Shown here: positions 135 through 24,964 of the stretch, piece after piece
How positions within the stretch are numbered: the first letter of the stretch is position 1
Layout: each line of letters starts with the position of its first letter
NCBI GenBank assembly: GCA_011048995.1
Contig: DSCS01000029.1
Span: 5,942 to 69,941 of the forward strand
From: Bacillota bacterium
GTDB lineage: Bacteria > Macinerneyibacteriota > Macinerneyibacteria > Macinerneyibacteriales > DSCS01
Length of the DNA stretch: 64,000 nucleotides
Direction: 5' to 3'
Program-made: the position numbers and the translations under genes
Notes under the pieces: model-generated
What the model was told of the DNA's origin: nothing
The model's database searches: none
The model's input: only the letters and a program-made list of their open reading frames with translations

Positions 135-1109
135 TTAATGGGAGAGAAGATAGTCGGCAGCGGCTAAAGCAGCCCGAGCTCCCTCTCCGGCAGCAATGAC
201 GATCTGCTTAAAAGGGACGTCGGTAACATCCCCGGCGGCGAAGACCCCTTCCACGGATGTCGCTCCATGCTTATCGACGATGATTTCTCCGTATTTGTTG
301 AGATCCACAAACCCCTGAAGGAATTCTGTGTTGGGGATCAGTCCGATCTCTACAAAAAGTCCCTCCAAGGGAAGTTTCTTCTCTTCACCGGTCAGGCGGT
401 TTTGAATGACCGCATGGGTGAGGGTGGTCTCTCCCTCGCAGCGGATCACAGCGGAGTTGAAAAAGATCTCCATTTTATCCCGGAAGGGATCGATTTTTCC
501 GCGCACGGCACGGTCAGCGGTAAAGTCTTCCAGAAATTGGATGACATAGATTTTTTTAGCGATTTTTCCCAGATCTACAATAGCCTCGATGGCTGAGTTT
601 CCCCCGCCGACGACGGCAACAGTTTTATCCCGGTAAAGAGGAGCATCGCATGTGGCGCAATAAGCGACGCCGCGCCCTGTCAATTCTTTTTCCCCGGGGA
701 CATCCATGGGCCGCGAACGTTTGCCTGTGGCCAAAATAATCGTTCGCCCCCTAAATGTTTTCCCGTCATCTGAATAAACTTTGAACAGGTCTTTCTCTTT
801 TTCAATTGACTTTACATGGACAAATTCATAGGTCTCCACATCGTATTGAAGCATGTGATTTTTCCAGCTTTCGGCCATGTCGGGACCGAGAATATGCGTC
901 GTTCCGATGTAATTCTCCACTTCGGAAGTGCTTAAGACCTGACCTCCCATGTCAAAAGTGATAAGGCCTGTCTTTAATCCTTTACGGGCCGCATAAAGAG
1001 CGGCGTTCATTCCTCCGGGGCCTCCTCCGATGATGATGGTATCGTATAATGTCTTCTCATCCATAGGCTCTGCTGTCTTAGAAGAGGGCAATTTAAAATC
1101 AAAAGGCAT
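135..1109 (-). CDS. trxB: Thioredoxin-disulfide reductase. The start was moved to the Met at 1109, which has an AGGAGG RBS; the tracked ORF extends further upstream.
   Basis: Translation carries the FAD-binding motif IIIGGGPGGMNAALYAAR, the redox-active CATCDA and the NADPH-binding site VVGGGNSAIEA. Length is about 325 aa. Confidence 0.9.
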   Translation of the reverse strand: MPFDFKLPSSKTAEPMDEKTLYDTIIIGGGPGGMNAALYAARKGLKTGLITFDMGGQVLSTSEVENYIGTTHILGPDMAESWKNHMLQYDVETYEFVHVKSIEKEKDLFKVYSDDGKTFRGRTIILATGKRSRPMDVPGEKELTGRGVAYCATCDAPLYRDKTVAVVGGGNSAIEAIVDLGKIAKKIYVIQFLEDFTADRAVRGKIDPFRDKMEIFFNSAVIRCEGETTLTHAVIQNRLTGEEKKLPLEGLFVEIGLIPNTEFLQGFVDLNKYGEIIVDKHGATSVEGVFAAGDVTDVPFKQIVIAAGEGARAALAAADYLLSH

Positions 1110-1371
1110 GATCTTCCTCCTTTGGGGGATTGAGAGTGAAAAGCAGTAAATCCTCAAAGAGCGCGAGTTCTTCCTCCTCATCTTCGTCTTTTGTCTCCAT
1201 AAGCGATAAAATGGCCAAAAGGTCTTCAATATCAGCCCGGCTCAGATGCAAAACCGCTTTTTTGCCGCGTTCTTCTTTTTTTTTGGAGAAATAGGATCGA
1301 CTTTCCGTAGAAAAGGCAATAACGTTTTCCCATATCCGTAATTCTTTTTTGTCAATTTCAATCTCTGGCAT
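1099..1371 (-). CDS. Small acidic hypothetical protein (90 aa). Its stop overlaps the trxB start by 11 nt.
   Basis: The ORF is positioned for translational coupling to trxB. The protein is E/D-rich with a predicted helical C-terminus. No family recognised. Confidence 0.35.
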   Translation of the reverse strand: MPEIEIDKKELRIWENVIAFSTESRSYFSKKKEERGKKAVLHLSRADIEDLLAILSLMETKDEDEEEELALFEDLLLFTLNPPKEEDHAF

Positions 1372-1513: not shown

Positions 1514-1541
1514 TTGACAATAAGTGACATTGCCTTATACT
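1514..1541 (+). promoter_or_regulatory. Sigma70-like promoter for the membrane-protein operon.
   Basis: TTGACA at 1514-1519, a 16-17 nt spacer, then TATACT at 1536-1541. An AT-rich UP-like sequence lies upstream. A GGAGG RBS at 1569-1573 precedes the ATG at 1581. Confidence 0.5.
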
Positions 1542-1580
1542 TTTTTCGTGTTTTCGTTGAATCATCATCAAGGAGGTAAT

Positions 1581-2705
1581 ATGAAAAGGCTGCTGGTCAT
1601 TCTGCTCTTCCTTTCTGTTATTCCCTTTTCTTTGCAAGCGCAGGAGGGGGAAGCTATTTTTATCGCGGAAGATGTGAAATATGATTCCGGCGGGTCTATC
1701 AATCTGATATGGACCGTACCGGACCTGGAACAAAATTTGATATTAGAGATCTTCCGAGTATTTGGCGAAACAGAAGGAAAGATCATTCAAACTCCGGACG
1801 CGAGCGGACGTTTCACAGACAGAAACCTGGATTATAAAGGAAGTTATTATTATGTCCTGCGAGCTGTCAACCCGGAGGGAGAAATATTTCAGGAATGGAC
1901 GACAGAGACAATTATTCCCGCTGCGGCCTGGTTTGATTGGAGCAAACTGATCGTCCTTATCGCTCTTGTCATAATCTTTGCATTGATTACTCATTATATT
2001 AAAGCCGCCAAGAGGGGTGTCGAGTTTACCATCAGGAAGATCCCTGCGCTGGAATCAGTGGATGAAGCCATCGGACGGGCAACAGAAATGGGAAAACCCA
2101 TTCTCTTCGTTCCCGGGATCATGGATATCGACGATGTCCAGACTGTCGCCGGGATCATCATCCTGGGGGAAGTGGCCTCCAAGACGGCAGCCTATGATGC
2201 AATATTGAATGTCCCGGTCTCTCGTTCAATGGTCATGTCCACGGCCCGTGAGACGGTAAAGGAATCTTATCTGAAAGCCGGGCGTCCCGACGCCTTCAAT
2301 GAAAATATGATCCATTATCTGACCGATGACCAGTTCGGGTATGTCTCGGGCGTCGACGGGATCATGGCCCGTGAAAAGCCGGCGGCCATTTTTATGTTGG
2401 GGACTTTTTATGCCGAAAGCCTGATTTTGGCCGAGACCGGCAACTCCATCGGGGCCATTCAGATCGCCGGGACGGCTATGCCCTCCCAGCTGCCTTTTTT
2501 TATTGCCGCCTGCGATTATACTTTGATCGGGGAAGAGCTTTATGCCGCATCAGCTTATCTCAGCCATCAGCCTCATATGTTAGGCGCCCTGAAGGGGCAG
2601 GATATGGCGAAACTTTTGATTATGGTTATTCTTATCATCGGAACCATTCTGACGCTTCTTTTTCCTGAACTGGGAATCGTCGAGTTGTTTGCCAATATCG
2701 GCTGA
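1581..2705 (+). CDS. Exported or membrane protein of unknown function. It has a cleavable signal peptide, a roughly 100-aa Ig/FN3-like beta-sandwich ectodomain, a TM helix, a roughly 200-aa domain and a C-terminal hydrophobic segment.
   Basis: N-terminus is MKRLLVILLFLSVIPFSLQAQEG. Beta-rich segment runs SINLIWTVPD...YYYVLRAVNPEGE. TM segment is LIVLIALVIIFALI. C-terminal hydrophobic stretch is LLIMVILIIGTILTLLF. The real start is at 1581 behind an AGGAGG RBS; the tracked ORF starts at 1524. Confidence 0.6.
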   Translation: MKRLLVILLFLSVIPFSLQAQEGEAIFIAEDVKYDSGGSINLIWTVPDLEQNLILEIFRVFGETEGKIIQTPDASGRFTDRNLDYKGSYYYVLRAVNPEGEIFQEWTTETIIPAAAWFDWSKLIVLIALVIIFALITHYIKAAKRGVEFTIRKIPALESVDEAIGRATEMGKPILFVPGIMDIDDVQTVAGIIILGEVASKTAAYDAILNVPVSRSMVMSTARETVKESYLKAGRPDAFNENMIHYLTDDQFGYVSGVDGIMAREKPAAIFMLGTFYAESLILAETGNSIGAIQIAGTAMPSQLPFFIAACDYTLIGEELYAASAYLSHQPHMLGALKGQDMAKLLIMVILIIGTILTLLFPELGIVELFANIG

Positions 2706-2719
2706 CAGGAGGAGCTAAT

Positions 2720-3379
2720 ATGTTTTGGAAAAGACAATTTCCCATATTGATCACCGCATTCGTGGCTTTTGTCATGATTGCCGCTTTTTTTATCCCGAAA
2801 CCGAATATTGCCGTTGCCCGGGATAATCTGCAGCAGTGGTTTTTAATCGTCGTGACCTTTACCATGGTTTTGGGGCTGTTGAACCTTTTGCTTGTGAGTT
2901 ATCAGAAAGCCAGAAGGGGCCGCAAAGAGGACCGTTTCTACCAATGGGTGACCATTGCCGGCCTTTTGGGCACGATTATTGCGGGATTTCTCGGCGGTGG
3001 AATCGACGGGCCCGCCTTCGATTTTATCTTTGAACATATTTATAAACCATTGAGCGCCACGATCTTTTCTCTTTTGGCCTTTTATGTAGCATCAGCATCT
3101 TTCCGGGCTTTCCGCGCCAAATCGGTCATGGCGACGATTCTTCTCATCACGGCGTTTATTGTGATGTTGGGCCGCGTGCCTTTGGGAGAATGGGTCTCCG
3201 GATGGCTTGTGGGGACAAAGTTTGAGTTTCTCTATTTGCCGACTATTACTGACTGGATCATGGAAGTGATGAATATGGCCGGCCAACGGGCTGTCCTGAT
3301 GGGGGCGGCTCTGGGGCTTATCGCCACAGGCATCAAAATTATCCTGGGTATTGAGCGTTCCTACCTGGGCGGAGAATAG
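2720..3379 (+). CDS. Polytopic inner-membrane protein (219 aa, about 5-6 TM helices). Unknown family.
   Basis: Hydrophobic helices are present throughout. An AGGAGG RBS sits 14 nt after the upstream stop. It is the second gene of a coupled four-gene operon. Confidence 0.55.
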   Translation: MFWKRQFPILITAFVAFVMIAAFFIPKPNIAVARDNLQQWFLIVVTFTMVLGLLNLLLVSYQKARRGRKEDRFYQWVTIAGLLGTIIAGFLGGGIDGPAFDFIFEHIYKPLSATIFSLLAFYVASASFRAFRAKSVMATILLITAFIVMLGRVPLGEWVSGWLVGTKFEFLYLPTITDWIMEVMNMAGQRAVLMGAALGLIATGIKIILGIERSYLGGE

Positions 3380-3388
3380 GGGGGTATT

Positions 3389-4228
3389 ATGACATTTCTT
3401 GAAAAACTCGATCGATTGGACCGCCGCATCATCTTTTTGATCATCGGCATCGCCGTCTTTACTCCGCTGCTTTTCAAAGTCCCGGTGAAAGTCCCCGGGT
3501 CTCCCATTGTTCAAAGCATTTATGAGGGGATCGAAGCCTTGCCGGAAGGAAGCATCATCCTGCTTTCTTTTGACTATGACCCCTCCACATTGGCGGAATT
3601 GCAGCCCATGTCGGAAGCGGTGGTCTACCATTGTGTTCAGAAAAAACATAAAATGGTCTTCATGGGCCTCTGGCCCCAGGGACCGAAATTGGCTCAGGGG
3701 ATTATGGATGACGTGGGTCCCCGGAATAACCTGGAATACGGCGTGGATTATGTCAATCTGGGTTATAAGACCGGGGGGCTTGTCTTGATCAGCAGTATGG
3801 GATCGGCGATAACAGATCCTTTTCCCACAGACACCTACGGGGCTTCACTCAGTACCCTTCCCCTTTTTAAGGATTTGAAAACATTGAGGGATTTTGATTA
3901 TGTGGTCTCCATGTCTGCCGGGGATCCGGGGATCAAGCACTGGGTCATGATCGCACAAGACCGCTTTAAAGTGCCCGTGGGGGGCGGAGTGACGGCTGTC
4001 AGCGCTCCGGCCTTTTATGCCTATTACAACTCCGGGCAGCTTCAGGGTCTTATGGGAGGCTTGCGCGGGGCTGCAGAATATGAAACGCTGATCGATGTTT
4101 CCGGTTCCGCTTCCTTAGGGATGAGCGCTCAGAATTGGGCTCATTTGATGATTATTCTCTTTATCATTATCGGGAACACGACCATGTTGATTTTGAAACG
4201 AAGAAAAGAAAAAAGCAGGGGTAGGTGA
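3389..4228 (+). CDS. Bitopic membrane protein (279 aa). It has N- and C-terminal TM helices flanking a roughly 220-aa soluble domain, with a basic C-terminal tail. Unknown family.
   Basis: N-terminus MTFLEKLDRLDRRIIFLIIGIAVFTPLLF. C-terminus HLMIILFIIIGNTTMLILKRRKEKSRGR. A G-rich RBS precedes the start. Confidence 0.55.
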   Translation: MTFLEKLDRLDRRIIFLIIGIAVFTPLLFKVPVKVPGSPIVQSIYEGIEALPEGSIILLSFDYDPSTLAELQPMSEAVVYHCVQKKHKMVFMGLWPQGPKLAQGIMDDVGPRNNLEYGVDYVNLGYKTGGLVLISSMGSAITDPFPTDTYGASLSTLPLFKDLKTLRDFDYVVSMSAGDPGIKHWVMIAQDRFKVPVGGGVTAVSAPAFYAYYNSGQLQGLMGGLRGAAEYETLIDVSGSASLGMSAQNWAHLMIILFIIIGNTTMLILKRRKEKSRGR

Positions 4229-4908
4229 TGATGATGACATTTGCTGGAGCAATCGGAATTTTTCTGGCAGGAGCACTGACCCTTGCCATTTTTAGTTTTC
4301 TTTATAAGGACAATCCGGTCTACAAGTTCGCCGAACATCTCTTTATCGGGACTTCGGCGGGGTATTGGTTTGTCTATAATGTGTACAATGTCTTTTGGCC
4401 AAATGTAATTGTGGCTTGGGGGGAAGCGGAAGGTTTCTGGGCCTATTTCAATATTGTCATGCCTGTTTTGCTGGGTGTTTTCATGCTTATGCGTCTGATT
4501 CCCTCCATTGCCTGGATCTCACGCTGGGCCATGGCTTTTTCTGTGGGGATGAGTGTAGGGTTCAGTATTATTATGGAGCTTCAGACGAATATTTTACAGC
4601 AGATCGGTGCGACCTTGAGCCCCTTTGCCTCTCTTCACTTTAATAACGGAGGTACCGCAGCGGCAGTGAATGCTATTATAATTCTCCTTGCGGTTTTGTC
4701 TGCTTTGGTGTATTTTTTCTTTTCCAAGGAGCATACGGGTGCTTACGGGCATGTTGCCAAAGTGGGTATCTGGGTCCTGATGATCACTTTTGGGGCTTCT
4801 TTCGGATATACGGTCATGGCCCGTATTTCCCTGCTCATCGGACGCGTGCAGTTTTTACAGGAAGAGTGGTGGGTTGCCATCAAGCATCTCATCGGTCTGG
4901 GATCATAA
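4225..4908 (+). CDS. Polytopic inner-membrane protein (227 aa, about 6 TM helices). Unknown family.
   Basis: Its start overlaps the upstream stop in an ATGA arrangement. Hydrophobic helices, for example IGIFLAGALTLAIFSFLY and AIIILLAVLSALVYFFF. Confidence 0.55.
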   Translation: MMMMTFAGAIGIFLAGALTLAIFSFLYKDNPVYKFAEHLFIGTSAGYWFVYNVYNVFWPNVIVAWGEAEGFWAYFNIVMPVLLGVFMLMRLIPSIAWISRWAMAFSVGMSVGFSIIMELQTNILQQIGATLSPFASLHFNNGGTAAAVNAIIILLAVLSALVYFFFSKEHTGAYGHVAKVGIWVLMITFGASFGYTVMARISLLIGRVQFLQEEWWVAIKHLIGLGS

Positions 4909-4924
4909 AAAAGTGAGGTGTAAT

Positions 4925-6166
4925 ATGAAGAAGATAGCATTCATTTTAACATTTGTCTTAGGCATTGCGGGCCTTTTCATTTTGGCCGGCTGTTCCTCAA
5001 CACAGGAAGAGGATCCCTTCGGAGCGATCACTGAAAGAGAAGAGACTCCTCTCTATGTCGTGGCATATAACAAAGGTTATAACCAGGCGGCTGCGAGAAA
5101 CTGGGAAGGGGCTGTTCCTCACTATGAAGAGGCTGAAAAGCATCTTCGTAAACTCTCTGAAGCCGAGTTGAAAGATGAGGCGACAGAAAGAATCTTTCAG
5201 AGAACACTTATGGGATTGGCCCTGGCCTACGGGAATATGGACCAATATGATAAATCTTCAGGATATTTTAAAAAGTACATTCAACGCTGGCCTGAAGATA
5301 TTAACGGCTATTTGAATTATGGAGCTATATTGGAAAAAAGCGGGCAATCCGAGCAGGCCCATGCGCAATATACCAAGGCGATGGGGATAAATCCGGAAAG
5401 CGCTGTAGCAGAGTTCGCCCTGGCCAGTATTTACCGCCAAGACGGACGTCTTGATATGGCTATCAAATATTATACATACGGATTAAAAAAGGACCCCAAT
5501 TTCCGCGACGGAAACGGCTGGTTCCAGTTGGGGAAAACCTATGAAGAAAAAGGCGATTATGAAGGGCAGATCAAGGCTTATGAATCAATGGTCGAAATCC
5601 GGCCGGATGACTGGCAAGCCTATTACTATTTGGCTGATGCCTATCTGACCATGGGGATGTCTGTGGGTTCGCGCAAGGCCAGCCTTTCTTCCTCCGACAG
5701 GCAATTAAGAATCTCTTACTATGACAAGGCGATTGAAACAGATAAAAAGGGACTCAGCATCAGACCCGATTCAGGTCAGATTATGACTCATTTGGCCAGC
5801 TCCTATGTCCGCAAAGCTGAGATGTACAGTAAAGGAACATCACAATATGCTCAGAATGCACAGGAAGCGATCAAAGTGCTGGAGCAGTTTACATCGCTTT
5901 ATCCTGATAATGAAAAAGGATATGCCCTGTTGGCCGACGCCCAACAGAAACTGAGAAATTTCAACAGTGCGATTGCCAATGCCCGGAAATCTCTGGAGAT
6001 CTCAGATAATGAATACGCTCATTCTATTCTGGGGGATGTCTTCTTTACTCTGGAACGTTGGGGAGACGCTCAGACCCATTACCGGCGAATTGCAAATAAT
6101 CCCCAGTACTCTTATGTCCGGGGGCGTCTGGAGATCATTGAAGCCCGATTGCGCGGAGAGTATTAA
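4925..6166 (+). CDS. TPR-repeat lipoprotein (413 aa).
   Basis: Lipoprotein signal MKKIAFILTFVLGIAGLFILAGCSS with lipobox LAGC. Multiple 34-aa TPR-like repeats (AxxYxxxG patterns). A GAGGTG RBS precedes the start. The tracked ORF starts at 4790. Confidence 0.7.
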   Translation: MKKIAFILTFVLGIAGLFILAGCSSTQEEDPFGAITEREETPLYVVAYNKGYNQAAARNWEGAVPHYEEAEKHLRKLSEAELKDEATERIFQRTLMGLALAYGNMDQYDKSSGYFKKYIQRWPEDINGYLNYGAILEKSGQSEQAHAQYTKAMGINPESAVAEFALASIYRQDGRLDMAIKYYTYGLKKDPNFRDGNGWFQLGKTYEEKGDYEGQIKAYESMVEIRPDDWQAYYYLADAYLTMGMSVGSRKASLSSSDRQLRISYYDKAIETDKKGLSIRPDSGQIMTHLASSYVRKAEMYSKGTSQYAQNAQEAIKVLEQFTSLYPDNEKGYALLADAQQKLRNFNSAIANARKSLEISDNEYAHSILGDVFFTLERWGDAQTHYRRIANNPQYSYVRGRLEIIEARLRGEY

Positions 6167-6177
6167 GCCGGGTCAGC

Positions 6178-7560
6178 ATGATTTCATTTGACTTTTCAAA
6201 CCTTTTACAGGCCAATATCGGGGAAAAATTCGGGCTCAGCCCGAATTTCCCTGATATGTGGAATGAGATTTCCCGTAAAGGATACTTAAAGGTCGAAAAA
6301 GGCCGAGGCGGGTATCCGTATCATTTTATGGAATTGCCCTATGATGATCATGAAGATGTCAAAAAGTGGGGCGATTTACTGGGTAAATACAAGAATTTTG
6401 TGGTTGTGGGAATCGGAGGCTCGGCTTTGGGGGCCTATGCCCTGTTTAATGCGCTGAAACATCAATATCATAATCTGATCTCCGACCAAAAAGTCTTTTT
6501 TATTGATAACTCGGATCCTGCTACAATTCTCAATGTTTTTGATGTTGTTGACCTGAAGAACACCGTTTTTAATATTATTACAAAGTCGGGGAGCACGGCA
6601 GAAACCATGTCCGCTTTTTCCATGATTTTCAACTTGCTTAACGAGGAGGGGCTTCCCCTTCATGAGCATCTGATTGTGACAACCGATCGTGAAAAAGGGG
6701 ATCTCATCAAAATCGCCGGGGAATATCATCTTCCTACGATGTTTATCCCCGAAGGAGTCGGAGGACGTTACTCCATCTTCACCCCCGTTGGCCTTTTGCC
6801 GGCTCTTTTTATGGGAATCGATCTGGACGCGCTTCTGGAAGGGGCAAAAGATATCGACTCATATTGGCGGCGCACCCCTGTGGAAGAAAATCCTGTTGCT
6901 CTCAGTGCCTTGGCTAATTATCTCTATCATACGCAGTATGGGCGAAATATTTTTGCGCTGATGTGTTACAAAGACGCCCTGAAGGGATTGGGCTTATGGT
7001 ATCAGCAGTTATGGGCAGAAAGCCTGGGAAAAAAGTACGATCTGGACAGCAATACCGTAGAGACCGGGACAACACCGGTCGTTCTCAGGGGAGCCACAGA
7101 TCAGCATTCTTTACTACAGCTTTTTATCGAAGGGCCGAACGACAAACTTTTTGTCTTTTTTGAAGTAAAAAAACCCGACCGGGACAGGTCTTTTCATGTG
7201 GGAGAACTTGAAAAGTTTAAGAGTCTGTCTTACTTTGAGGGTAAAAGCTCCCATGACTTGATCACAGCTGAATTGGCCGGCGTCAAATACGCTCTGGCTT
7301 TCAACGGAAAACCGAGCTACACGATTTCTATGGATTCTCTGGATGCTTATCACCTGGGTGGGCTGATCTATGCCCTGCAGCTGCAGACAGTCTTTTCTTC
7401 TACTCTATACAATATCAACCCCTTTGACCAGCCCGGAGTCGAAGAGGGAAAGAAGGCGACCTATGCCATTATGGGGCGTGACGGCTATGATGAGAAACGC
7501 AAGGAAATGGAAGATAACATCAAAGAGGTTTTCATCCGGGAGATCCCGTCAAAAAAATGA
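6178..7560 (+). CDS. pgi: Glucose-6-phosphate isomerase (short 460-aa type).
   Basis: PGI motifs VVVGIGGSALG, TKSGSTAETM and GGRYSIFTPVGLLPA, followed by a sugar-isomerase C-terminal domain. Confidence 0.85.
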   Translation: MISFDFSNLLQANIGEKFGLSPNFPDMWNEISRKGYLKVEKGRGGYPYHFMELPYDDHEDVKKWGDLLGKYKNFVVVGIGGSALGAYALFNALKHQYHNLISDQKVFFIDNSDPATILNVFDVVDLKNTVFNIITKSGSTAETMSAFSMIFNLLNEEGLPLHEHLIVTTDREKGDLIKIAGEYHLPTMFIPEGVGGRYSIFTPVGLLPALFMGIDLDALLEGAKDIDSYWRRTPVEENPVALSALANYLYHTQYGRNIFALMCYKDALKGLGLWYQQLWAESLGKKYDLDSNTVETGTTPVVLRGATDQHSLLQLFIEGPNDKLFVFFEVKKPDRDRSFHVGELEKFKSLSYFEGKSSHDLITAELAGVKYALAFNGKPSYTISMDSLDAYHLGGLIYALQLQTVFSSTLYNINPFDQPGVEEGKKATYAIMGRDGYDEKRKEMEDNIKEVFIREIPSKK

Positions 7561-16184: not shown

Positions 16185-17866
16185 AGAGGATTCATATGCA
16201 GAACTTTGCTATTGCTGAAAACCTCTCTATGGAATTCAGTCCCGACTTCAATGTGATTACCGGAGAAACCGGAGCGGGAAAGTCCATTATTCTCAATGCC
16301 ATTGCTATGGCTATGGGGGATCGGGCTGATCAGGAAATGATCCGACTAGGGGCCGACGAAGCTGTGGTCGAGGCGGTTTATACTAAAAGTCCTCTGTTAC
16401 AGTCCTGGCTGGCAGAGCAAGGGTTTCCTGACGAGGATGTCTGTATTGTCAAAAGGATCATCAAAAGAAACGGAAAGAACAGAGTCTTTATTAACGGCTC
16501 TTCTGCGACCCTGAATCAGCTTAAAGAAATCACAGAGCGCTTGCTTGACCTGAATAATCAGAGTGAACATCAGATGCTTATGGATCCGGCCAATCATTTG
16601 CGTTTTTTGGATTATTACGGTATGCCGTGGGAGGCTTTGGATGAATATCAAAAACTTTATAAGGAGCTTTACGTCCTTGTGAACCGCTTTGAGAATTTTA
16701 AAAAAGAGGAGCGGGACATCCGCCGAAAAATCGACACCTATCGTTTTGAGCTGAGTGAGATCGAAGGGGTGTCTCCCAGACCCGGAGAAGACGAATCTCT
16801 CTTAGATGAGGTGAGGTTGCTCGAAAAGTCTCGTTCGATCATGGAACACACGGCTCTCATTCACAGATTATTTAATGAAGATGATGATTTTACCGGTGCT
16901 CTTGATGATGTCCTGGGACGATTGGAAAAGCTCCGGGGTATCAGTGAGCCCATGGACGGTTTTGCAGAAAGGCTGACGGGGCATTTGAACGGTATGAGTG
17001 AGGAAGCCCGCCAGCTCCAGCGTTATGTGGAAGAGATGGAATTGGATGAAGAACGCCTGGACACTGTCAACGAGCGGCTGGCTTCCATTGAAAAATTAAA
17101 AAGAAAATACGGAGACTCGGTTGAAGAGGTGCTCGCCTATGCCGGGCGAATCAAAGGAGAATTGGAATCTTTTGAAGAAATGACTTTTGATGCGGAAAAA
17201 TTCGCTCAAAAGATCGACGCTTTGGGGCGAAAGCTTGTCGAAAAGGATGCAACGCTTTTTGAGAAGCGCCAAAAGGCAGCTGAATCCTTTACGGCCGCCC
17301 TTGAGGAAGAGATGAAGGATATCGCATTGGAAAAGGCCCGTTTTTACGTGGAGTTTCTTCCTGTCGAACAGGGCATGGAAGTCAGTAATCGACAATTTGG
17401 CCCGGAGGGAAGCCGCCGGGCAGAATTCTATATTGAGACGAACCCCGGAGAAGGGCGGCATCCTTTGGTGAAAACGGCTTCCGGCGGAGAATTGTCGCGG
17501 ATTCTTTTTGCCTTAAAATCTGTTATCGGACGGCATTTAGATATCGAGTGTATGATCTTTGATGAGATCGACAGCGGCATCGGCGGGGCCGTGGCCGGAA
17601 TGGTAGGATCTAAATTGGCCCGTCTTTCACAAAAATACCAACTCATTGTCATTACTCATCAGCCTCAGATCGCGGCGTTAGGGAAAAGGCATTTCCATGT
17701 CGAAAAAGTCTATGACGGACGCAGAACAGTGACGCAGGTCAGAGTATTAGAGGGAGAGGGTGTGGTCAAAGAGATCGCCCGAATGATTGCCGGCTCCCCT
17801 GAAGACCCTGAGGCCCTGTCAGTAGCCCGGCGCATGAGCCGGCTGCAGGAATCGGAGAACACATGA
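16178..17866 (+). CDS. recN: DNA repair protein RecN.
   Basis: N-terminus MLERIHMQNFAIAENL. Walker A GETGAGKS, a long coiled-coil middle, and C-terminal signature SGGELSRILFAL with Walker B MIFDEIDSGIGG. Confidence 0.9.
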   Translation: MLERIHMQNFAIAENLSMEFSPDFNVITGETGAGKSIILNAIAMAMGDRADQEMIRLGADEAVVEAVYTKSPLLQSWLAEQGFPDEDVCIVKRIIKRNGKNRVFINGSSATLNQLKEITERLLDLNNQSEHQMLMDPANHLRFLDYYGMPWEALDEYQKLYKELYVLVNRFENFKKEERDIRRKIDTYRFELSEIEGVSPRPGEDESLLDEVRLLEKSRSIMEHTALIHRLFNEDDDFTGALDDVLGRLEKLRGISEPMDGFAERLTGHLNGMSEEARQLQRYVEEMELDEERLDTVNERLASIEKLKRKYGDSVEEVLAYAGRIKGELESFEEMTFDAEKFAQKIDALGRKLVEKDATLFEKRQKAAESFTAALEEEMKDIALEKARFYVEFLPVEQGMEVSNRQFGPEGSRRAEFYIETNPGEGRHPLVKTASGGELSRILFALKSVIGRHLDIECMIFDEIDSGIGGAVAGMVGSKLARLSQKYQLIVITHQPQIAALGKRHFHVEKVYDGRRTVTQVRVLEGEGVVKEIARMIAGSPEDPEALSVARRMSRLQESENT

Positions 17867-20800
17867 AAAATCTTTTATCCCTTTCCCTGATGACTCTTTT
17901 TATCTTTTTGATTTCACCCGGGACTGAATTACTTGAACCTCTGTATTACGGCGTGGATTACTGGCCGTTAGCAGTCGATATGGATTTTGATTGGGATCTT
18001 TGGAAAACATCTACAGAAGAAAGTATGACATATCAAGGATATGAAGTCATGTCGGAAGGGTTAGTCCCCGATATTAAGATTGCAAAAGATTCGACCATCA
18101 AAATAACAGGACGCAAAAACATCAGTTTTGAAGTCAGTAAAAAGACCTATCCCAATGTTACCGAGCTGGCTGACCCGCTTTATCAGAATGCCGGGGGAAT
18201 CGATCCTGAGATCAAGCAACAGCTGCAGGTAAAAGTGGAGGGGATTATTAAAAACAGAATTTTTATTGATGTGGATTATGATGATACTCAACAATATGAG
18301 AACCGGGAACGTATTTCTGTGGTCTATAAAGGGACAGAAGATGAAATCGTCCGGGAAGTCGCCCTGGGGGATATAACATTAAGTCTTCCTCATACGGAAT
18401 TTATATCATTTAACAGGAATCTTTTCGGCGCTAAAGCGACTCTGGTCATGGGGCCGTATTCCTATTACGGCCTGATTACAAAAGAGGAAGGGGTCACACA
18501 AAGCAACAGCTGGTCGGCTGTCAACCCGATGATCCAAAAAACGACTTATGATACAAACTTCTCCACATCTCCGGTCCGTCTTTCTCTTCAGCAGGGGATC
18601 CCTGGGATTTCTTTGCCTCTTGTGGAAGGCGAGGTCTATCTTTATTACGATGACGGAATCTTCAACGAGGAGGACCAGGGGCGTATTCCCTGCGGGGAGT
18701 TTTATTTCGAACCTCTGATCCCTGTAACGGATTATATGGTGGATCATGAAAAAGGGGAGATCATCATCAAAAAGAGCATGGCGACCACAGGCACTGTGGC
18801 TATGATCTATACTGATGCCAATGCCGTGACCCACGGAAATCCCGATCCGGAAACATTTGATTACGGGGCACTCATTTATTCAAAAAGAAGCGAAGTCGAG
18901 TATCAGGAAATCAGACAATTATTCTTAAAAAGAAATATTTATTTTTTGGGGTCCTCGGACCTTGACGCTTCCGGATTGAGCCTGGAGATCCTCGATTTAG
19001 GGGGGAAGTCAGGTGTGACCGTGACAGCTGAGGATTTGAGTCAAAAGACCTACAGCTATATGCATCTATTCGGGATTGACAGAGATAATGACGGTACGGC
19101 GGATCTAACATTTTTAGATTTCGACTCAGGAGCTTTGGATTTTTCTTTTTATCAGGGAGGAGATGTAAGTCTTGAATCTCTTCAGCCTTTTAACACGCTT
19201 CAGTTTCTCTCAGAGAGCGAGCCATCGGGAATCACCGCTGACCTTCCGCTTTATTTATCGGAAATACGCGCGGAGATCGGAGATGTTCCTTTCATTGAGT
19301 TGATGCAAAGCCTGGACAATAGCGGAATCTATGAAGAGGGTTCTACAGCCCTTCGCAAGTATTCTATTTATACGGAATATTACTCATCGACCCCGGTTTT
19401 TAATTTAAATCAGTTTAATATCATCAGTGGAAGTGAGCGGGTCGTCGTCAACGGGGAGATTCTTTTCCGCGGAAGAGATTATCGTATTGACTATCTCACG
19501 GGGACTGTTGAGATCCTTAATGAGAATGTCATGTCGGCCAATGCTTCCGTGCAGATCACCTATGAATACAGGCCGCTGATGATGTCTAAAAGCAAAACAT
19601 TAGTGGGGAACCGAGTAGAATACAACCCAAATGAAAACCTGAGTGTCGGGGCGACTTACATGGATGAGTGGATGCCCGAATCCAATGATGTGGATATTCC
19701 TCATATGGGTGATGAGACGATGCGTCATCGCGTGTATGGAGCCAATGTCAAATACGATCATATCCGGGATGATTATCATATCAACATTTCCGCTGAAGCA
19801 GCCCGCAGCAATGTCGACCCCAATACCTATGGAAGTGTGTTTATTGAAGACATGGAATCAAGCCAACAGGTCAAAAGCTTGCCCATCGCCAAAGGCTCGT
19901 GGTTTATTGCTTCTCCTCCGGATGCCGTCGCTTCCGAAAACCGTTTTGTGCCGACTTTTTCTGTCAGCGACGGGTCGGTCTTTGATTCATACAATTATTT
20001 TGTTAATGAGTACGTCCCTTTGACAGAGATCAACTCCAATTACGGAACAGGGGATAATATGGTCCTGCGTTTTCGGCAAATGCCGGAAGCCGGTGAATTT
20101 TTTTCTTACGGAACGGTTGTTTCACAAAACGGGATGGATCTGACACAATACAGACAGATCGAGATCTGGTATAAAGCAAACAGCGGGGCTTCCGGGACGG
20201 TTTATTTGGATCTGGGTTATATCAGCGAAGACGCTGATGCAGACGGATTTTTGGATACAGAGGATTTGAATGGCAACATGGAGCTGAATGCGGGTGAAGA
20301 TATCGGCTGGGCCTTTGACCTGGCCGGAACCGTTTATCCTATCGGCAAAGATAATAATGTTCTGGATACTGAAGATCTGAATCGGAATGGAGTTCTTAAT
20401 ACCAATGAATCTGTCGTCCGCTATTCTTTTGACCTGGGTGAAGGAGAATCTCATGAGAGCAATGACTGGAGGGTTTTGACCATTCCGCTCAGTGAGGGCA
20501 CGGATTATGAGACTATTCTCAAAGTCGTCAAACACTTGCGTTTATGGGGAGAAGGATTCAGCAGCGGAACGGAATTTTCTTTAGGGCGTCTGGCTATTGT
20601 CGGCACCGTTTGGCAGGAAGACCAGGTCTACCCTGAGGCCGGCTCTCTGGAGATCAGTTCCATCAGTCAGTATGATGACCCCAATTATATTAACCTGCAT
20701 CATAAAGTCGACAAGGATACCGGCCGGGTTTTGAAAGATGTCTCTCTGGTTATGGACTTTGATATGGTTCCGGGCGTTAATGATGAAAGTTATGCCTTTG

Positions 20801-22881
20801 CACGCAAGGACCTTGGCTCCGGCCGCGATTTTTCTCTTTATAATAAACTGAGGGTCTACTTTTTCCCCAAGGAGACAAACGGTGATTATTCCTTCACGGT
20901 CAGACTGAAAACCAGTCAAGAGGACTATTTTGAAAAGAAACGAACTGTTCTGGCTGAAGACCTGGGGCGTTGGCATTATTTGGAATTTGATATTGCACAT
21001 ATTGACCGGACAGATGCAGAAAGCTCAATTGTGGGAGACCCCAATATTAATGTCATCAACTATATCCATATCGGAGTCACCGGGGAAGACGGCCCTTATA
21101 ACGGTGTGCTTTATGTTAATGATATCCGGCTTGTCGATTCCAGTATTCAGGAGGGGACAGCTAAAACAGGATCCGTTCAAGCCAGTTATAAGAATATCGC
21201 CGGGATGTATTATAAGTATATCGATCGGGACGGGCAGTTTGCCGCTATCGGGCAGTCTCCCGGATATATCAATTCTACCAATCATCTTTTCAGAACGAAC
21301 GTCGACTTAGCGTCCTGGCTTTTGAGTTCAAGCGGTGTCAATCTTCCGGTTAACTTTAATTATGGACAGACCCTTAGTGAGACGGATTCGGGAGTCCTTT
21401 CCGAAGTAAGTTACCGGACTTGGGGACGCACAGAAACAAGGACAATGGGTGTCAGTGCAAAATTTTCAAAGAGACAATGGCCGACTCTTTCTTACTCCTT
21501 TGACAGTTATCAACAGGATGTGGGAAATGAGACACGCCCGCTGGACCAACAGCGGCGCAGTCATAATATGGGCCTTTCTTATGTCCCGCCGAAAGCAGAA
21601 CTTTTAACAGTAAATTGGCTACCTTCGTCTGTTAATGTCAGTTTTAAAAGGGAGAAATCCCATTACCTGAATCTGCTTGAAGAAAATCAGAACAGTGATT
21701 ATAAAAGGCTGACGGAGAGATGGAATTTTAATATGAATTGGCTTCCTGTTCAAGGGTGGCGCACCAGTTTTTCCTTATATCAAACTGAACAATGGGATGA
21801 GTTTGAACATCTTTATACTAAAAATGACAGGCAATCGACTTTGGACAACACTTACAGCAGGACTTTTTGGATCCTTGATCTTTACGGAAAATACAGGGCA
21901 CAATTTCAGGAGAATTGGAGCTATGAAAAAGCGATCAATGCGGGAAACTATAATCTTCGAACCTTTAATCTGACCAGCCTCTATGAAACTCGCCTGACTA
22001 TTCATATGATCCGTTATGCCGGATTTTTGCCCTTTTTTCAAAAAAAATTGGATCTGGTGACGTCATATCAATACGATGAACGGGACTATTATGACATGAA
22101 AGAAGGGGAGGCCCGCAATGGAGTCTTCCTCGGATTGGCCGGCAGCCTTGACGTTGAAGGGGCTCCCGATCTGGAGACGGACGGAGAGCGGTTTTCTTTG
22201 GCAGCTAAAACAGAATTTATCACAGGGATCTCCTTCGATCTGGGCTATGAGAAAAACTTATCGGAGAGCTATAACAAGGGAAACGAAAGCAAGGAAGAAT
22301 CCGTGACATGGCCTGATGCCGTTCTCACTGTAAGCCGCTTTCAGCCAATTCCTTTGCTGAAACACTTCGACCGTCTGGTGGTTTCTCATACTCTGAAATT
22401 TCAGTATAAAGAAAAAGAGACGACGACATACGGTTATTATTCTAAAATTGTAAGTGATGAGACTCTTTTCAGCGAGTGGAGGGTGACCTGGAGCGGGGCA
22501 TTGTCTACGCGTTGTTATTTTCGCAAAAATGTTCAGAACCAGGCCACAGCCATGTATGAGAGGGTCAATGAGCGGGTGGAAGGTTATGTGGATTTCAACT
22601 ACCGTATCAGAAATTCAAAACTTTTGAAAGGTTTCCTGCGCAAAAAAGAGAGCACCGTGAATACTCTGCTGACGTTAGGAGGAACCTTCCGTTACATTGA
22701 TCAGTCTTTTACGACCGGAACGGATTATTACTCGTGGGAATCATCTGTCCGGGGACGGTATGATTTTGGTACGGGAATGTCTTTGGGGGCTCTTTTGGGG
22801 TTTAACCTTTACCGCAGTGAAGTTCCGACTAAGGATTATAATGAAATCAAGTTAGGGGGAGATTTTGAAATCCGTTTTTAA
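17863..22881 (+). CDS. sprA: Giant (1672 aa) secreted outer-membrane protein, most likely a SprA/Sov-family type IX secretion translocon homolog.
   Basis: N-terminal signal peptide. Repeated acidic D-T-E-D-L-N motifs (DTEDLNGNMELNAGED, DTEDLNRNGVLNTNE). Beta-rich C-terminal half ending ...GGDFEIRF with a terminal Phe, a beta-barrel signature. Size and context fit an FCB-group bacterium. Not confirmable without a profile search. Confidence 0.5.
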   Translation: MKNLLSLSLMTLFIFLISPGTELLEPLYYGVDYWPLAVDMDFDWDLWKTSTEESMTYQGYEVMSEGLVPDIKIAKDSTIKITGRKNISFEVSKKTYPNVTELADPLYQNAGGIDPEIKQQLQVKVEGIIKNRIFIDVDYDDTQQYENRERISVVYKGTEDEIVREVALGDITLSLPHTEFISFNRNLFGAKATLVMGPYSYYGLITKEEGVTQSNSWSAVNPMIQKTTYDTNFSTSPVRLSLQQGIPGISLPLVEGEVYLYYDDGIFNEEDQGRIPCGEFYFEPLIPVTDYMVDHEKGEIIIKKSMATTGTVAMIYTDANAVTHGNPDPETFDYGALIYSKRSEVEYQEIRQLFLKRNIYFLGSSDLDASGLSLEILDLGGKSGVTVTAEDLSQKTYSYMHLFGIDRDNDGTADLTFLDFDSGALDFSFYQGGDVSLESLQPFNTLQFLSESEPSGITADLPLYLSEIRAEIGDVPFIELMQSLDNSGIYEEGSTALRKYSIYTEYYSSTPVFNLNQFNIISGSERVVVNGEILFRGRDYRIDYLTGTVEILNENVMSANASVQITYEYRPLMMSKSKTLVGNRVEYNPNENLSVGATYMDEWMPESNDVDIPHMGDETMRHRVYGANVKYDHIRDDYHINISAEAARSNVDPNTYGSVFIEDMESSQQVKSLPIAKGSWFIASPPDAVASENRFVPTFSVSDGSVFDSYNYFVNEYVPLTEINSNYGTGDNMVLRFRQMPEAGEFFSYGTVVSQNGMDLTQYRQIEIWYKANSGASGTVYLDLGYISEDADADGFLDTEDLNGNMELNAGEDIGWAFDLAGTVYPIGKDNNVLDTEDLNRNGVLNTNESVVRYSFDLGEGESHESNDWRVLTIPLSEGTDYETILKVVKHLRLWGEGFSSGTEFSLGRLAIVGTVWQEDQVYPEAGSLEISSISQYDDPNYINLHHKVDKDTGRVLKDVSLVMDFDMVPGVNDESYAFARKDLGSGRDFSLYNKLRVYFFPKETNGDYSFTVRLKTSQEDYFEKKRTVLAEDLGRWHYLEFDIAHIDRTDAESSIVGDPNINVINYIHIGVTGEDGPYNGVLYVNDIRLVDSSIQEGTAKTGSVQASYKNIAGMYYKYIDRDGQFAAIGQSPGYINSTNHLFRTNVDLASWLLSSSGVNLPVNFNYGQTLSETDSGVLSEVSYRTWGRTETRTMGVSAKFSKRQWPTLSYSFDSYQQDVGNETRPLDQQRRSHNMGLSYVPPKAELLTVNWLPSSVNVSFKREKSHYLNLLEENQNSDYKRLTERWNFNMNWLPVQGWRTSFSLYQTEQWDEFEHLYTKNDRQSTLDNTYSRTFWILDLYGKYRAQFQENWSYEKAINAGNYNLRTFNLTSLYETRLTIHMIRYAGFLPFFQKKLDLVTSYQYDERDYYDMKEGEARNGVFLGLAGSLDVEGAPDLETDGERFSLAAKTEFITGISFDLGYEKNLSESYNKGNESKEESVTWPDAVLTVSRFQPIPLLKHFDRLVVSHTLKFQYKEKETTTYGYYSKIVSDETLFSEWRVTWSGALSTRCYFRKNVQNQATAMYERVNERVEGYVDFNYRIRNSKLLKGFLRKKESTVNTLLTLGGTFRYIDQSFTTGTDYYSWESSVRGRYDFGTGMSLGALLGFNLYRSEVPTKDYNEIKLGGDFEIRF

Positions 22882-24964
22882 AACCGTTATTCTTTTCTCT
22901 CTTCTGACTTCTGTTTTTCCGGTTTCAGGACTGGAATTGAAACTGTTTGTCCCTATGCCGCATACTGAGTTGACCTATGAGATCGCCCCCTTAGCCGAAG
23001 ATGAAGAGGCGCACCCTTACCCGGCGGCCTATTTAGGGTATGAGCGTCAGGTGGTCAGCGGGAACTTTAATGGGAGCGGCGATTTCAGCGGGGTTTTGAC
23101 TTTCGGATATACCTGTGATGTTCTCTCTTTTCTTTTTCGTGTCGATGATGACGACATATTGGAAGGGGATACTTTTACTCTGATCCTCTCTCTGGAAGGG
23201 TATGCCGATAAACAGATCAGCTGGAACAGTACCGGACAGATTGAAAAAAAGACAACAGCCGGGATGAACGTCGAATTGAAACAGAAAACACCACGGGGGC
23301 GTATTTACTACATTACACTCCCCTGGGAATCATGGCCTCTTCTTCAGCATAAAGCGTACAAAATGCAATTATGGGTTCAAGATAAGGATCATTGGGGAGA
23401 AAAGACACTTGTCCTTCAGGACAGACCGGCACGGTTGCTCCTGAATCCTTTTGTCTCTTGCGAAAATTTTATTTTGGCTGCCGACCGGTTTTATCTGTGC
23501 CCCGAAGAGACCCTGACTCTTTACGGAGAATGGGCATCTGAAAAAGACTTGCAGCGGACAGTCACCCTTCGGGTCAACGGGCATATCATATCCGAAACGT
23601 TTGCTCTTCATGAAGGCCGGACTCCTTTCGAGTTGGTCCTCGGCCCTGATGACTGGAGAGAAGACAATGTTGTTGAATGGATAACCCCCTCAGGGGGAAA
23701 AAGTTTTCTCTTCGAGGTCTCTCATGCGGGGGGAGATTATATCCCCGTGCGGAGCAAAAGAGACAATGAAAAAAACGAATTTTTACACCGGTTTTCTGCA
23801 CGATTTGAAGGCCCCCTCTTTCGGACGCCCTATGAATTCTTTTTCCTTCCCGGGAGAGATGCGCCTGCCCGCTTGATCGTTACGGATTCCTATGAGAAAG
23901 CTTATGAGATTTTAAAGGCCGGGGAATATGCATGTCCCGGGGACCTTTATGTCTATGTGTTTAGGGATAAGGCTCGTCCGCTGTTTGCTCATGACTTTTA
24001 CTTTTTCTGGGAAGAGAAGTCTATAGGGCTTCTTTTTATTGAAGGGAAAGCAGGGCGGCCCTTCATTGATCTGATCAAGAAAAATCCTCCGGTATTTCGG
24101 CCGGCTGTCCATCTTATCCATTTTGATAACCCGGGAGCCCTTATATATGACCCTGAAATCGACACATTGAGGAGTTACATCGTAACACTTTGGAAAAAGA
24201 GTACAGAGACAGGATTTTCTCTTCCGGATTTTTTCCGTATAAAAACGCTTCCCGACAATGGGACCCTTCAAACGCTTTTCATGTCTTATGAGGAGTCTTG
24301 TGAGCGTTCCGATTCTCTTTTTTTGCGCTCATACTCTTTGGGAAATAACCGGTTGGGCCCCCTGGACGTCTATGAGCTCCTTCACTATAACTTGAATTCT
24401 TTCTCTGTGAGTCTCAAAGCGAATAAGCTTTATGCAGAAAATATCCGTTACTTTACTCTGGTGGTGGACACTGATGTGACAGAGTTGTATCTCAATGGAA
24501 GGGCGTATCATGTTTTTCCGGGCCGGTTGAACCGTTTTGCCTGGGATGATCATAAGGATGTCTGGAGTGTTTTTGTGGGCGAAGGGTTGGCTTTCCCCTC
24601 GGTAAAGGATTTTTTCTCTGCTCCTGTGACAGCATTGGACCAAGAGACGGTTGAAAGGATGAGAAAGGCTATGGGAGCATCTCCTCCTCTGGGCCAGGGG
24701 AATCATCTTCTCTATTGGGGAAGGGAACTGCCGATCGAGGCCGTAAAGGATTTTGACATTACCGTCAAAGACGGACACGTTTTATCCATGAACGGAAACC
24801 CTGTATCCCTTCAGGAGCCGTTTTTAATGGTTTTTCAGAAAAACGGGAAAATGCTTTTATGGATGACGGCTTCTCCTTCGGGGTTTTACTCCTACCCCTC
24901 CAATTACATTGTTCTGGACGATAGTGGCCTGATCCGGAGGTTTGGGGAGGTGCTCCCCCGATGA
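22865..24964 (+). CDS. Exported hypothetical protein (699 aa). Translationally coupled to the upstream SprA-like gene.
   Basis: Signal peptide MKSVFKTVILFSLLTSVFPVSG. 17-nt overlap with the SprA-like 3' end. No recognisable catalytic motifs. Confidence 0.55.
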   Translation: MKSVFKTVILFSLLTSVFPVSGLELKLFVPMPHTELTYEIAPLAEDEEAHPYPAAYLGYERQVVSGNFNGSGDFSGVLTFGYTCDVLSFLFRVDDDDILEGDTFTLILSLEGYADKQISWNSTGQIEKKTTAGMNVELKQKTPRGRIYYITLPWESWPLLQHKAYKMQLWVQDKDHWGEKTLVLQDRPARLLLNPFVSCENFILAADRFYLCPEETLTLYGEWASEKDLQRTVTLRVNGHIISETFALHEGRTPFELVLGPDDWREDNVVEWITPSGGKSFLFEVSHAGGDYIPVRSKRDNEKNEFLHRFSARFEGPLFRTPYEFFFLPGRDAPARLIVTDSYEKAYEILKAGEYACPGDLYVYVFRDKARPLFAHDFYFFWEEKSIGLLFIEGKAGRPFIDLIKKNPPVFRPAVHLIHFDNPGALIYDPEIDTLRSYIVTLWKKSTETGFSLPDFFRIKTLPDNGTLQTLFMSYEESCERSDSLFLRSYSLGNNRLGPLDVYELLHYNLNSFSVSLKANKLYAENIRYFTLVVDTDVTELYLNGRAYHVFPGRLNRFAWDDHKDVWSVFVGEGLAFPSVKDFFSAPVTALDQETVERMRKAMGASPPLGQGNHLLYWGRELPIEAVKDFDITVKDGHVLSMNGNPVSLQEPFLMVFQKNGKMLLWMTASPSGFYSYPSNYIVLDDSGLIRRFGEVLPR

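Follow-up and report, generated by a model that had tools for sequence, protein, structure and literature searches.

What is encoded by four adjacent genes for membrane proteins when three of the products fall into no catalogued family? The question is raised by a stretch of 64,000 nucleotides (nt) from a Ca. Mcinerneyibacteriota genome, referred to below as the window, in which four consecutive genes, here named A, B, C and D, stand closely packed on the forward strand. An earlier reading made from the letters alone (the sequence-only reading) had described their products as a stoichiometric-looking membrane complex belonging to no known transporter, secretion or respiratory family, and both profile searches and synteny supported that description. 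Comparison across genomes identified the four genes as a conserved module, and it is well supported that their products are subunits of one autonomous complex of the cytoplasmic membrane that reaches both of its faces. A tentative reading of this complex as an importer is weighed below against its rivals.

Conservation of the A-B-C-D module

A scan of one genome per species yielded 49 loci encoding a relative of A (loci are given L numbers and single proteins P numbers below). All four genes were present, colinear and compact in 40 of these, with median gaps of 3, 6.5 and -4 nt at the three junctions; the remaining nine loci lay at contig ends, held tandem copies that confused the best-hit assignment, or were affected by problems in calling open reading frames (ORFs). 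The loci came from Mcinerneyibacteriota, Fermentibacteria, WOR-3, Cloacimonadota, Zixibacteria, TA06, Marinimicrobia, Ignavibacteria, Poribacteria and Planctomycetales, and protein matches extended the range to Latescibacteria, Coatesbacteria and Stahlbacteria. The gene order, on which the idea of a functional module had been made to depend, was thus strongly conserved over about ten phyla. When neighbouring ORFs were clustered, A to D were the only genes common to all loci. C and D were also found joined as single polypeptides (P0486 and P0503, 598 amino acids (aa)) with an extra transmembrane (TM) helix in the linker, and whole modules occurred in tandem, as two copies in L021 and L059 and as three in L044, the two A copies of L021 being unequal in length (377 and 296 aa). 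Treatment of A to D as one functional unit rests on three of these observations taken together: the conserved order, the lack of any other universally shared gene and the C-D fusions.

Both families for which sizes were obtained are large. At 90% identity, the A family has more than 8000 clusters (a lower bound) and the C family has 2488; at 50% identity C is represented by 5246 sequences, 1295 of them with E values of 1e-30 or less. The genome closest to the window was that of another Ca. Mcinerneyibacteriota metagenome-assembled genome (MAG), with 77-86% amino-acid identity from A through to pgi, the glucose-6-phosphate isomerase gene downstream of the module. Two loci, L008 and L023, lie on contigs labelled "Ca. 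Methanocomedens" (an archaeon) and "Bacillota", respectively; L008 is colinear with the Fermentibacteria locus L006, and both labels probably reflect contamination during MAG binning.

A to D therefore constitute a widespread and unexplored piece of cell machinery in many, mostly uncultured, bacterial phyla. The carrier lineages, few of which have been cultured, are dominant in many anoxic sediments, digesters and sponge microbiomes. Some parts of the complex reach a degree of conservation that is usually restricted to core enzymes. Finding the function of the module would annotate thousands of genes, and could bring to light a new kind of machinery by which bacteria carry matter or energy across the inner membrane.

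Architecture of the four proteins

Protein A consists of a signal peptide (residues 1-22), a periplasmic FN3 domain (~23-118), a TM helix (~120-141), a cytoplasmic alpha/beta domain (~145-341) and a C-terminal TM helix (342-364). The ectodomain, an ordinary FN3 domain, was identified as such by its beta-sandwich fold as well as by sequence profile. No recognizable family had been expected for any of the four proteins; this held for B, C and D, which gave no significant match in Pfam or NCBIfam, but A matched Pfam DUF6754 (PF20539) over residues 114-360 with a score of 403.1 bits (E 5.2e-121), against a gathering score of 27 bits. DUF6754, which was present in all 120 A relatives among the matches listed, is a catalogued but uncharacterized family. 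A literature search returned no paper mentioning DUF6754 or PF20539, and none describing a module of the A-B-C-D kind.

Protein A hardly varies in its cytoplasmic half, and its periplasmic parts are variable. Within residues 251-335, 46 of the 85 columns were at least 90% conserved across phyla, and the conserved motifs of A include REKPAA, FYAESLILAETG, IQIAGTA, QLPFF and ACDYTLIGEEL. The protein also carries an acidic cluster and, at Cys311, the sole invariant cysteine of the four families, in which no conserved cysteine motifs were seen. The ectodomain is of the FN3 type in the window, a PQQ/BamB-like beta-propeller in L023 and something else in Planctomycetales, and it is missing from A in one Cloacimonadota group. 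The structural model of A was poor just where conservation is highest (pLDDT below 50 at residues 252-315), and two fold searches with this model returned FN3 domains only.

For B, family-averaged hydropathy gave six TM helices with both termini in the cytoplasm, an orientation based on K/R-rich loops at residues 60-74 and 129-135; the protein carries the conserved helix SLLAFFVASAAFRAFRA. C has two TM helices (residues 12-35 and 247-268) and between them an alpha/beta domain of 211 aa, which was placed in the periplasm because the C-terminal tail is strongly basic (family mean of 5.6 K/R in 11 residues). AlphaFold2 modelled this domain as a six-stranded Rossmann-like sandwich with a pLDDT of 90.6, and the invariant residues of C cluster after the beta-strands of the modelled fold. 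The position after the beta-strands is the usual ligand site in Rossmann-like folds, and the conserved crevice of the C model is a candidate for such a site. D showed five clear TM helices and one short hydrophobic patch by hydropathy, with its N terminus in the periplasm, as indicated by the extra linker helix of the natural C-D fusions. Its conserved motifs are SFLYKDNPxYKFAEH and YFFFSKEHxG. Basic stretches after the first TM helix of A and the second of C gave further evidence on topology. The topologies proposed from sequence were therefore as described for A, B and C, but D is better given as having five to six TM helices than as a firm six. Invariant polar residues lie in or at the edge of TM helices in three of the proteins (B-Arg129, C-Gln248, C-His252, C-Asn263 and D-Arg200, the last within the final TM helix of D). 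These data support a complex in which the ectodomain of A and the soluble domain of C face the periplasm, some 15-16 TM helices cross the membrane, and the DUF6754 domain faces the cytoplasm.

Several departures from this plan were observed among homologs. C homologs carry inserts after helix 2, some of them helical; in P0443 the insert consists of HEAT-like repeats (E 5e-86 to alphaRep proteins), and in P0401 the repeats look Ig-like by eye only and gave no match in the PDB. P0365 (630 aa) appears to hold two C-type periplasmic domains in tandem. A Cloacimonadota subgroup (L031, L033, L034 and L046) combines an A without ectodomain with insertions of ~90 aa in B and ~260 aa in D, both Lys-rich and helical-looking. 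Ancient paralogy of A and C, which share a TM-alpha/beta-TM layout, and likewise of B and D, was considered and rejected, as hhalign comparisons were negative (probabilities of 3% and 0.8%).

Sequence and profile searches of the PDB with A to D gave matches to FN3 domains only. When 47 B and 44 D family members were scanned singly against Pfam, scattered hydrophobic noise was all that appeared (for B, among the best 25 of 46 families listed). PADLOC reported 0 families for A to D and for two accessory proteins described below, and the reading as a defence system was rejected on this result. In none of the Pfam, NCBIfam, PADLOC and PDB searches was any of the proteins assigned to a characterized complex.

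Known systems and candidate functions

The closest known systems were compared with the module part by part. TRAP (DctPQM) and tripartite tricarboxylate (TTT; TctABC) transporters likewise combine polytopic subunits with a periplasmic alpha/beta ligand-binding component and use no ATPase. The module shows no sequence similarity to them, however, and tests with the DctQ/DctM/DctP and TctA/B/C profiles were negative; moreover, C is a single-lobe Rossmann-like domain on two TM tethers, whereas TRAP and TTT systems use a soluble two-lobe binding protein, and the module has a fourth subunit with a large, highly conserved cytoplasmic domain. A likeness to GldF/GldG-type ABC-2 systems lies in the GldG-like topology of C and in its adjoining polytopic partner of ~220 aa, but no ABC ATPase is present in the operon. 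ABC_tran gave no match in A to D or in the TPR protein encoded downstream, and the only loci in which a small ABC ATPase gene immediately precedes A are L031, where Pfam confirmed it, and apparently L023. Matches of ABC2_membrane_5 to 2 of 47 B members (best E 0.021) were noise, and C gave no match to ABC_transp_aux. The MotA_ExbB and ExbD/MotB profiles did not match A to D; the same method detected the true ExbB and ExbD of WOR-3 loci with E values of 3e-25 and 4e-15. A to D likewise showed none of the vWA/BatA, DUF58 or MoxR domains of the Bat/MoxR aerotolerance cluster. Also listed among the closest known systems was MTH0777 (PDB 1kjn), an archaeal protein deposited under its locus name only. 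DUF6754 itself covers just one of the four proteins. The likeness to TRAP/TTT, to GldFG and to the Rnf/Nqr complexes discussed below is confined to the parts list, the profile tests for all of these being negative. Because B, C and D are in no library searched, no solved relative exists beyond the FN3 domain of A and no paper was found on DUF6754 or on such a module, we rate it, as judged from its sequences, as lying outside all known kinds.

Our leading reading, which is put forward tentatively, is a new type of translocator coupled to an ion gradient and most likely working as an importer. C, aided by the ectodomain of A, would capture a ligand in the periplasm, B and D would provide the transmembrane path, and in the cytoplasm the DUF6754 domain would receive or process the ligand. 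This proposal draws on the lack of an ATPase encoded alongside the module in the window, on the membrane-tethered periplasmic alpha/beta domain of C next to two polytopic subunits, on the buried invariant polar residues, on the tandem paralog arrays with the unequal A copies of L021, and on links to TonB systems. TonB-system genes were found within 8 kb of the module in Fermentibacteria, WOR-3 and L059: a TonB-dependent receptor gene lies 3' of D in six Fermentibacteria-type loci, ExbB-ExbD-ExbD-TonB genes lie downstream of the module in 13-14 WOR-3-type loci, and in L059 a TonB-dependent receptor gene follows the second module.

In many lineages, two further proteins could serve the importer as an optional cytoplasmic partner or energizer. 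The first is a GlmL-like ASKHA ATPase of ~600-630 aa, which matched the Pfam family "MutL" (PF13941) at E 1e-122 and fell below the NCBIfam cut-offs for GlmL. The second is a highly conserved protein of ~374 aa with an N-terminal barrel-sandwich hybrid domain of the RnfC_N/NqrA_N/lipoyl type; it forms a family of more than 8000 clusters (a lower bound) and matched no other family and nothing in the PDB. The pair is encoded directly 5' of A or 3' of D in Fermentibacteria, Ignavibacteria, Cloacimonadota and L059. In Latescibacteria the ~374-aa gene stands alone directly 5' of A, and in the Zixibacteria locus L044 the modules have a truncated ATPase gene upstream. It is possible, and we suggest it with similar reserve, that A to D together with the ASKHA ATPase and the barrel-sandwich protein make up an unrecognized class of membrane transport or energy-coupling machine, unrelated to ABC, MFS, TRAP, Rnf/Nqr and Ton/Tol/Mot systems, used across much of the FCB and PVC candidate phyla and possibly forming the inner-membrane step behind TonB-dependent uptake.

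A number of observations weigh against an importer. None of the searches revealed a transporter family similar in sequence or fold, and the path through B and D is a proposal, since no channel was seen and both proteins are known from sequence alone. The core of the DUF6754 domain is poorly modelled, with fold searches of A recovering FN3 only, and the extreme conservation of this cytoplasmic domain would be unusual for an accessory part of a transporter. Neither the TonB nor the ASKHA neighbours occur in the window, and many loci lack them; the TonB linkage, seen mainly in two lineages that may be related, could reflect inherited synteny. Nor did any riboswitch or regulator hint at a substrate. 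Finally, the variable periplasmic modules are of a protein-interaction type that is commoner in envelope machines than in solute importers.

This last point leads to the strongest of the alternatives, an outward-acting machine for envelope biogenesis or trans-envelope work, which we regard as possible and somewhat doubtful. Here the DUF6754 domain would bind or make a precursor (a lipid-linked glycan, a lipid or a lipoprotein), its flipping or extraction would fall to B and D, and C with the ectodomain of A would pass it to partners in the periplasm or outer membrane, for example the TPR lipoprotein encoded in the same operon. Protein-interaction domains of the kinds seen in the variable periplasmic parts (FN3, a PQQ/BamB-like beta-propeller, HEAT-like repeats and helical inserts) would fit this role. 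The neighbourhood offers some agreement, in that the TPR lipoprotein is co-operonic in the window, in L001-L004 and in L061, glycosyltransferase and peptidoglycan transglycosylase genes adjoin the Cloacimonadota loci, the module of L061 is nested in a MoxR-DUF58-BatA cluster, and the module of the window sits in a housekeeping region. These envelope-related neighbours change between lineages, however, and arrays of two to three modules would be unusual for a core biogenesis machine. In the Pfam and NCBIfam searches and in the scans of B and D members, the proteins themselves bore no signature of a glycosyltransferase, a flippase or a polymerase, nor of the Lol, Lpt or Mla systems.

It is unlikely, in our estimate, that the complex is an Rnf/Nqr-like energy converter that couples a cytoplasmic reaction to the movement of Na+ or H+. 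The architecture does parallel that of Rnf and Na+-NQR, with two ~200-aa subunits of six TM helices and bitopic subunits bearing periplasmic and cytoplasmic domains, and in many lineages the accessory neighbour carries the RnfC_N/NqrA_N-type barrel-sandwich domain (28.5 bits in P0344 versus a cut-off of 25.6). The invariant Arg, His, Gln and Asn residues in TM helices and the acidic cluster of A would suit such a role; many carriers are amino-acid fermenters, and genes for glycine cleavage precede the ASKHA/barrel-sandwich genes in L005, L009, L057 and L059. Nevertheless, Rnf-Nqr gave no match to the window proteins at E values up to 1 and was not among the families listed for the 47 B and 44 D members (for B, the best 25 of 46), FMN_bind did not match C, and Fe-S cysteine motifs were absent, A-Cys311 being the only invariant cysteine. 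An RnfD/NqrB-like subunit is likewise missing, no relationship between B and D could be detected, the window lacks the barrel-sandwich partner, and the module is present in aerobic Poribacteria and Planctomycetales too.

A still less probable alternative is a sensor or signalling platform tied to polarity or motility, in which the periplasmic modules would sense and the DUF6754 domain would dock regulators in the cytoplasm, for instance PATAN and Roadblock/LC7 proteins or the ASKHA ATPase. In the 13-14 WOR-3-type loci, genes for a PATAN (DUF4388) protein, two Roadblock/LC7-domain proteins and two small membrane proteins (2-3 TM helices) lie directly after the module, between D and ExbB, and in Edwardsbacteria this PATAN/Roadblock set comes after the ASKHA/barrel-sandwich genes. 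The PATAN/Roadblock linkage to the module is limited to one or two lineages, though, and does not occur in the window; no output domain of the kinase, cyclase, receiver or HAMP type was detected, and four subunits with ~15-16 TM helices would be excessive for a sensor. Chance adjacency of four unrelated hypothetical membrane proteins, for which nothing speaks beyond missing annotation, is excluded by an order kept in 40 of 49 loci from some ten phyla with overlapping or near-zero gaps, by the C-D fusions and by the tandem duplication of whole modules.

Gene layout and neighbourhood

The features of the locus are collected in Table 1. The coordinates of the four genes and their junctions, with gaps of 14 and 9 nt and a 4-nt overlap, agreed with the sequence-only reading, and Pfam matches confirmed the flanking trxB-like, TPR lipoprotein and pgi genes.

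Table 1. Features of the A-B-C-D locus, in window coordinates
Feature	Position	Strand	Description
Thioredoxin-reductase-like (trxB-like) gene	135-1112	-	Divergent flank, outside the module; Pfam Pyr_redox_2, E 2.5e-45; CATC motif in translation
Putative sigma-70-like promoter	1514-1541	+	TTGACA (1514), 16-nt spacer, TATACT; consensus match only
Ribosome-binding site of gene A	1570-1576	+	AAGGAGG, read in sequence; 4 nt upstream of ATG 1581
Gene A	1581-2705	+	374 aa; signal peptide, FN3, TM, DUF6754, C-terminal TM
Gene B	2720-3379	+	219 aa; polytopic, 6 TM
Gene C	3389-4228	+	279 aa; two TM flanking periplasmic Rossmann-like alpha/beta domain
Gene D	4225-4908	+	227 aa; polytopic, 5-6 TM
TPR lipoprotein gene	4925-6166	+	TPR Pfam matches; lipobox LAGC; ribosome-binding site GAGGTG; 16 nt past D
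pgi (glucose-6-phosphate isomerase)	6178-7560	+	Pfam PGI, E 1e-47; 11 nt past TPR gene

The promoter proposed for gene A is present in the 210-bp gap next to the trxB-like gene and agrees with the consensus at 11 of 12 positions, but it can be called no more than plausible, since promoter-like matches as a class are as frequent in shuffled sequence (7 in this region versus 7.3 expected). The ORF of A has an alternative start at GTG 1524; ATG 1581 stands behind the ribosome-binding site. The A-B junction contains AGGAGG and the B-C junction GGGGG, and at the C-D junction the stop codon of C (TGA, 4226-4228) overlaps the GTG start of D, for which ATG 4228, 4231 and 4234 are alternatives. No terminator was found after D, and the TPR and pgi genes are packed as tightly as A to D. 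The four genes are conserved as a unit, but in this genome the transcription unit, proposed as a four-gene operon, probably comprises six genes, A-B-C-D-TPR-pgi. The TPR lipoprotein and pgi genes follow D only in L001-L004 and L061, all Mcinerneyibacteriota relatives; outside the lineages described above, the neighbours of the module are unrelated metabolic genes.

The DNA around the module has a housekeeping character, with trxB-like, pgi, OsmC, dxs, recN, gyrB, gyrA and mutS genes. Directly 3' of the recN-like gene, two forward-strand ORFs of 1672 aa (17863-22881) and 699 aa (22865-24964) overlap at their ends; neither gave a Pfam match at E values up to 1e-5. No homolog of the ASKHA ATPase, the barrel-sandwich protein, PATAN or Roadblock was found in the window at E below 1e-3. 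An Rfam scan of the whole window (1-64000) returned no family at the gathering score, riboswitches included, and eight related loci were equally negative at threshold. Cofactor-regulated uptake, for instance of B12, had been considered in view of the GlmL-like "reactivase" and the TonB receptors, and was set aside on this result.

The ASKHA/barrel-sandwich pair (L009, 4782-7801; L059, 8132-11125; L031, 12237-15189; L053, 6888-8009) also occurs with no module nearby and itself looks like an undescribed system. The barrel-sandwich protein was compared with A and C as a possible relative and is not related to them. Nothing relevant came from literature searches that combined GlmL with Cloacimonadota or PATAN with Roadblock, or that addressed Mcinerneyibacteriota. 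Clusters of PATAN and Roadblock genes were located at 3147-8461 in L010 and at 12748-16278 in L057.

The glycine-cleavage genes (gcvT/H/PA/PB) that lie 5' of the ASKHA/barrel-sandwich genes in four loci are accompanied in L057 and L059 by a lipoate-protein ligase (LplA) gene a few genes downstream of that pair. The glycine-cleavage and LplA positions are 1-3847 in L005, 3-3988 in L009, 2824-7244 and 18735-19535 in L059, and 3817-5298 and 11934-12695 in L057. A link of the module to lipoate or glycine metabolism was rejected, as these genes lie outside the window and most loci, and the arrangement was treated as possibly inherited synteny, the alternative being a functional link to the ASKHA/barrel-sandwich genes. 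In L061 (Ca. Mcinerneyibacterium aminivorans, GCA_008086245.1; 7132-18950), the only locus in which MoxR, DUF58 and BatA genes adjoin the module and one that differs in this from the window, A-B-C-D-TPR-pgi stands between a MoxR AAA ATPase gene and a DUF58-BatA-(482 aa)-DUF4159 series, so that the module there is nested in a Bat/aerotolerance-type cluster.

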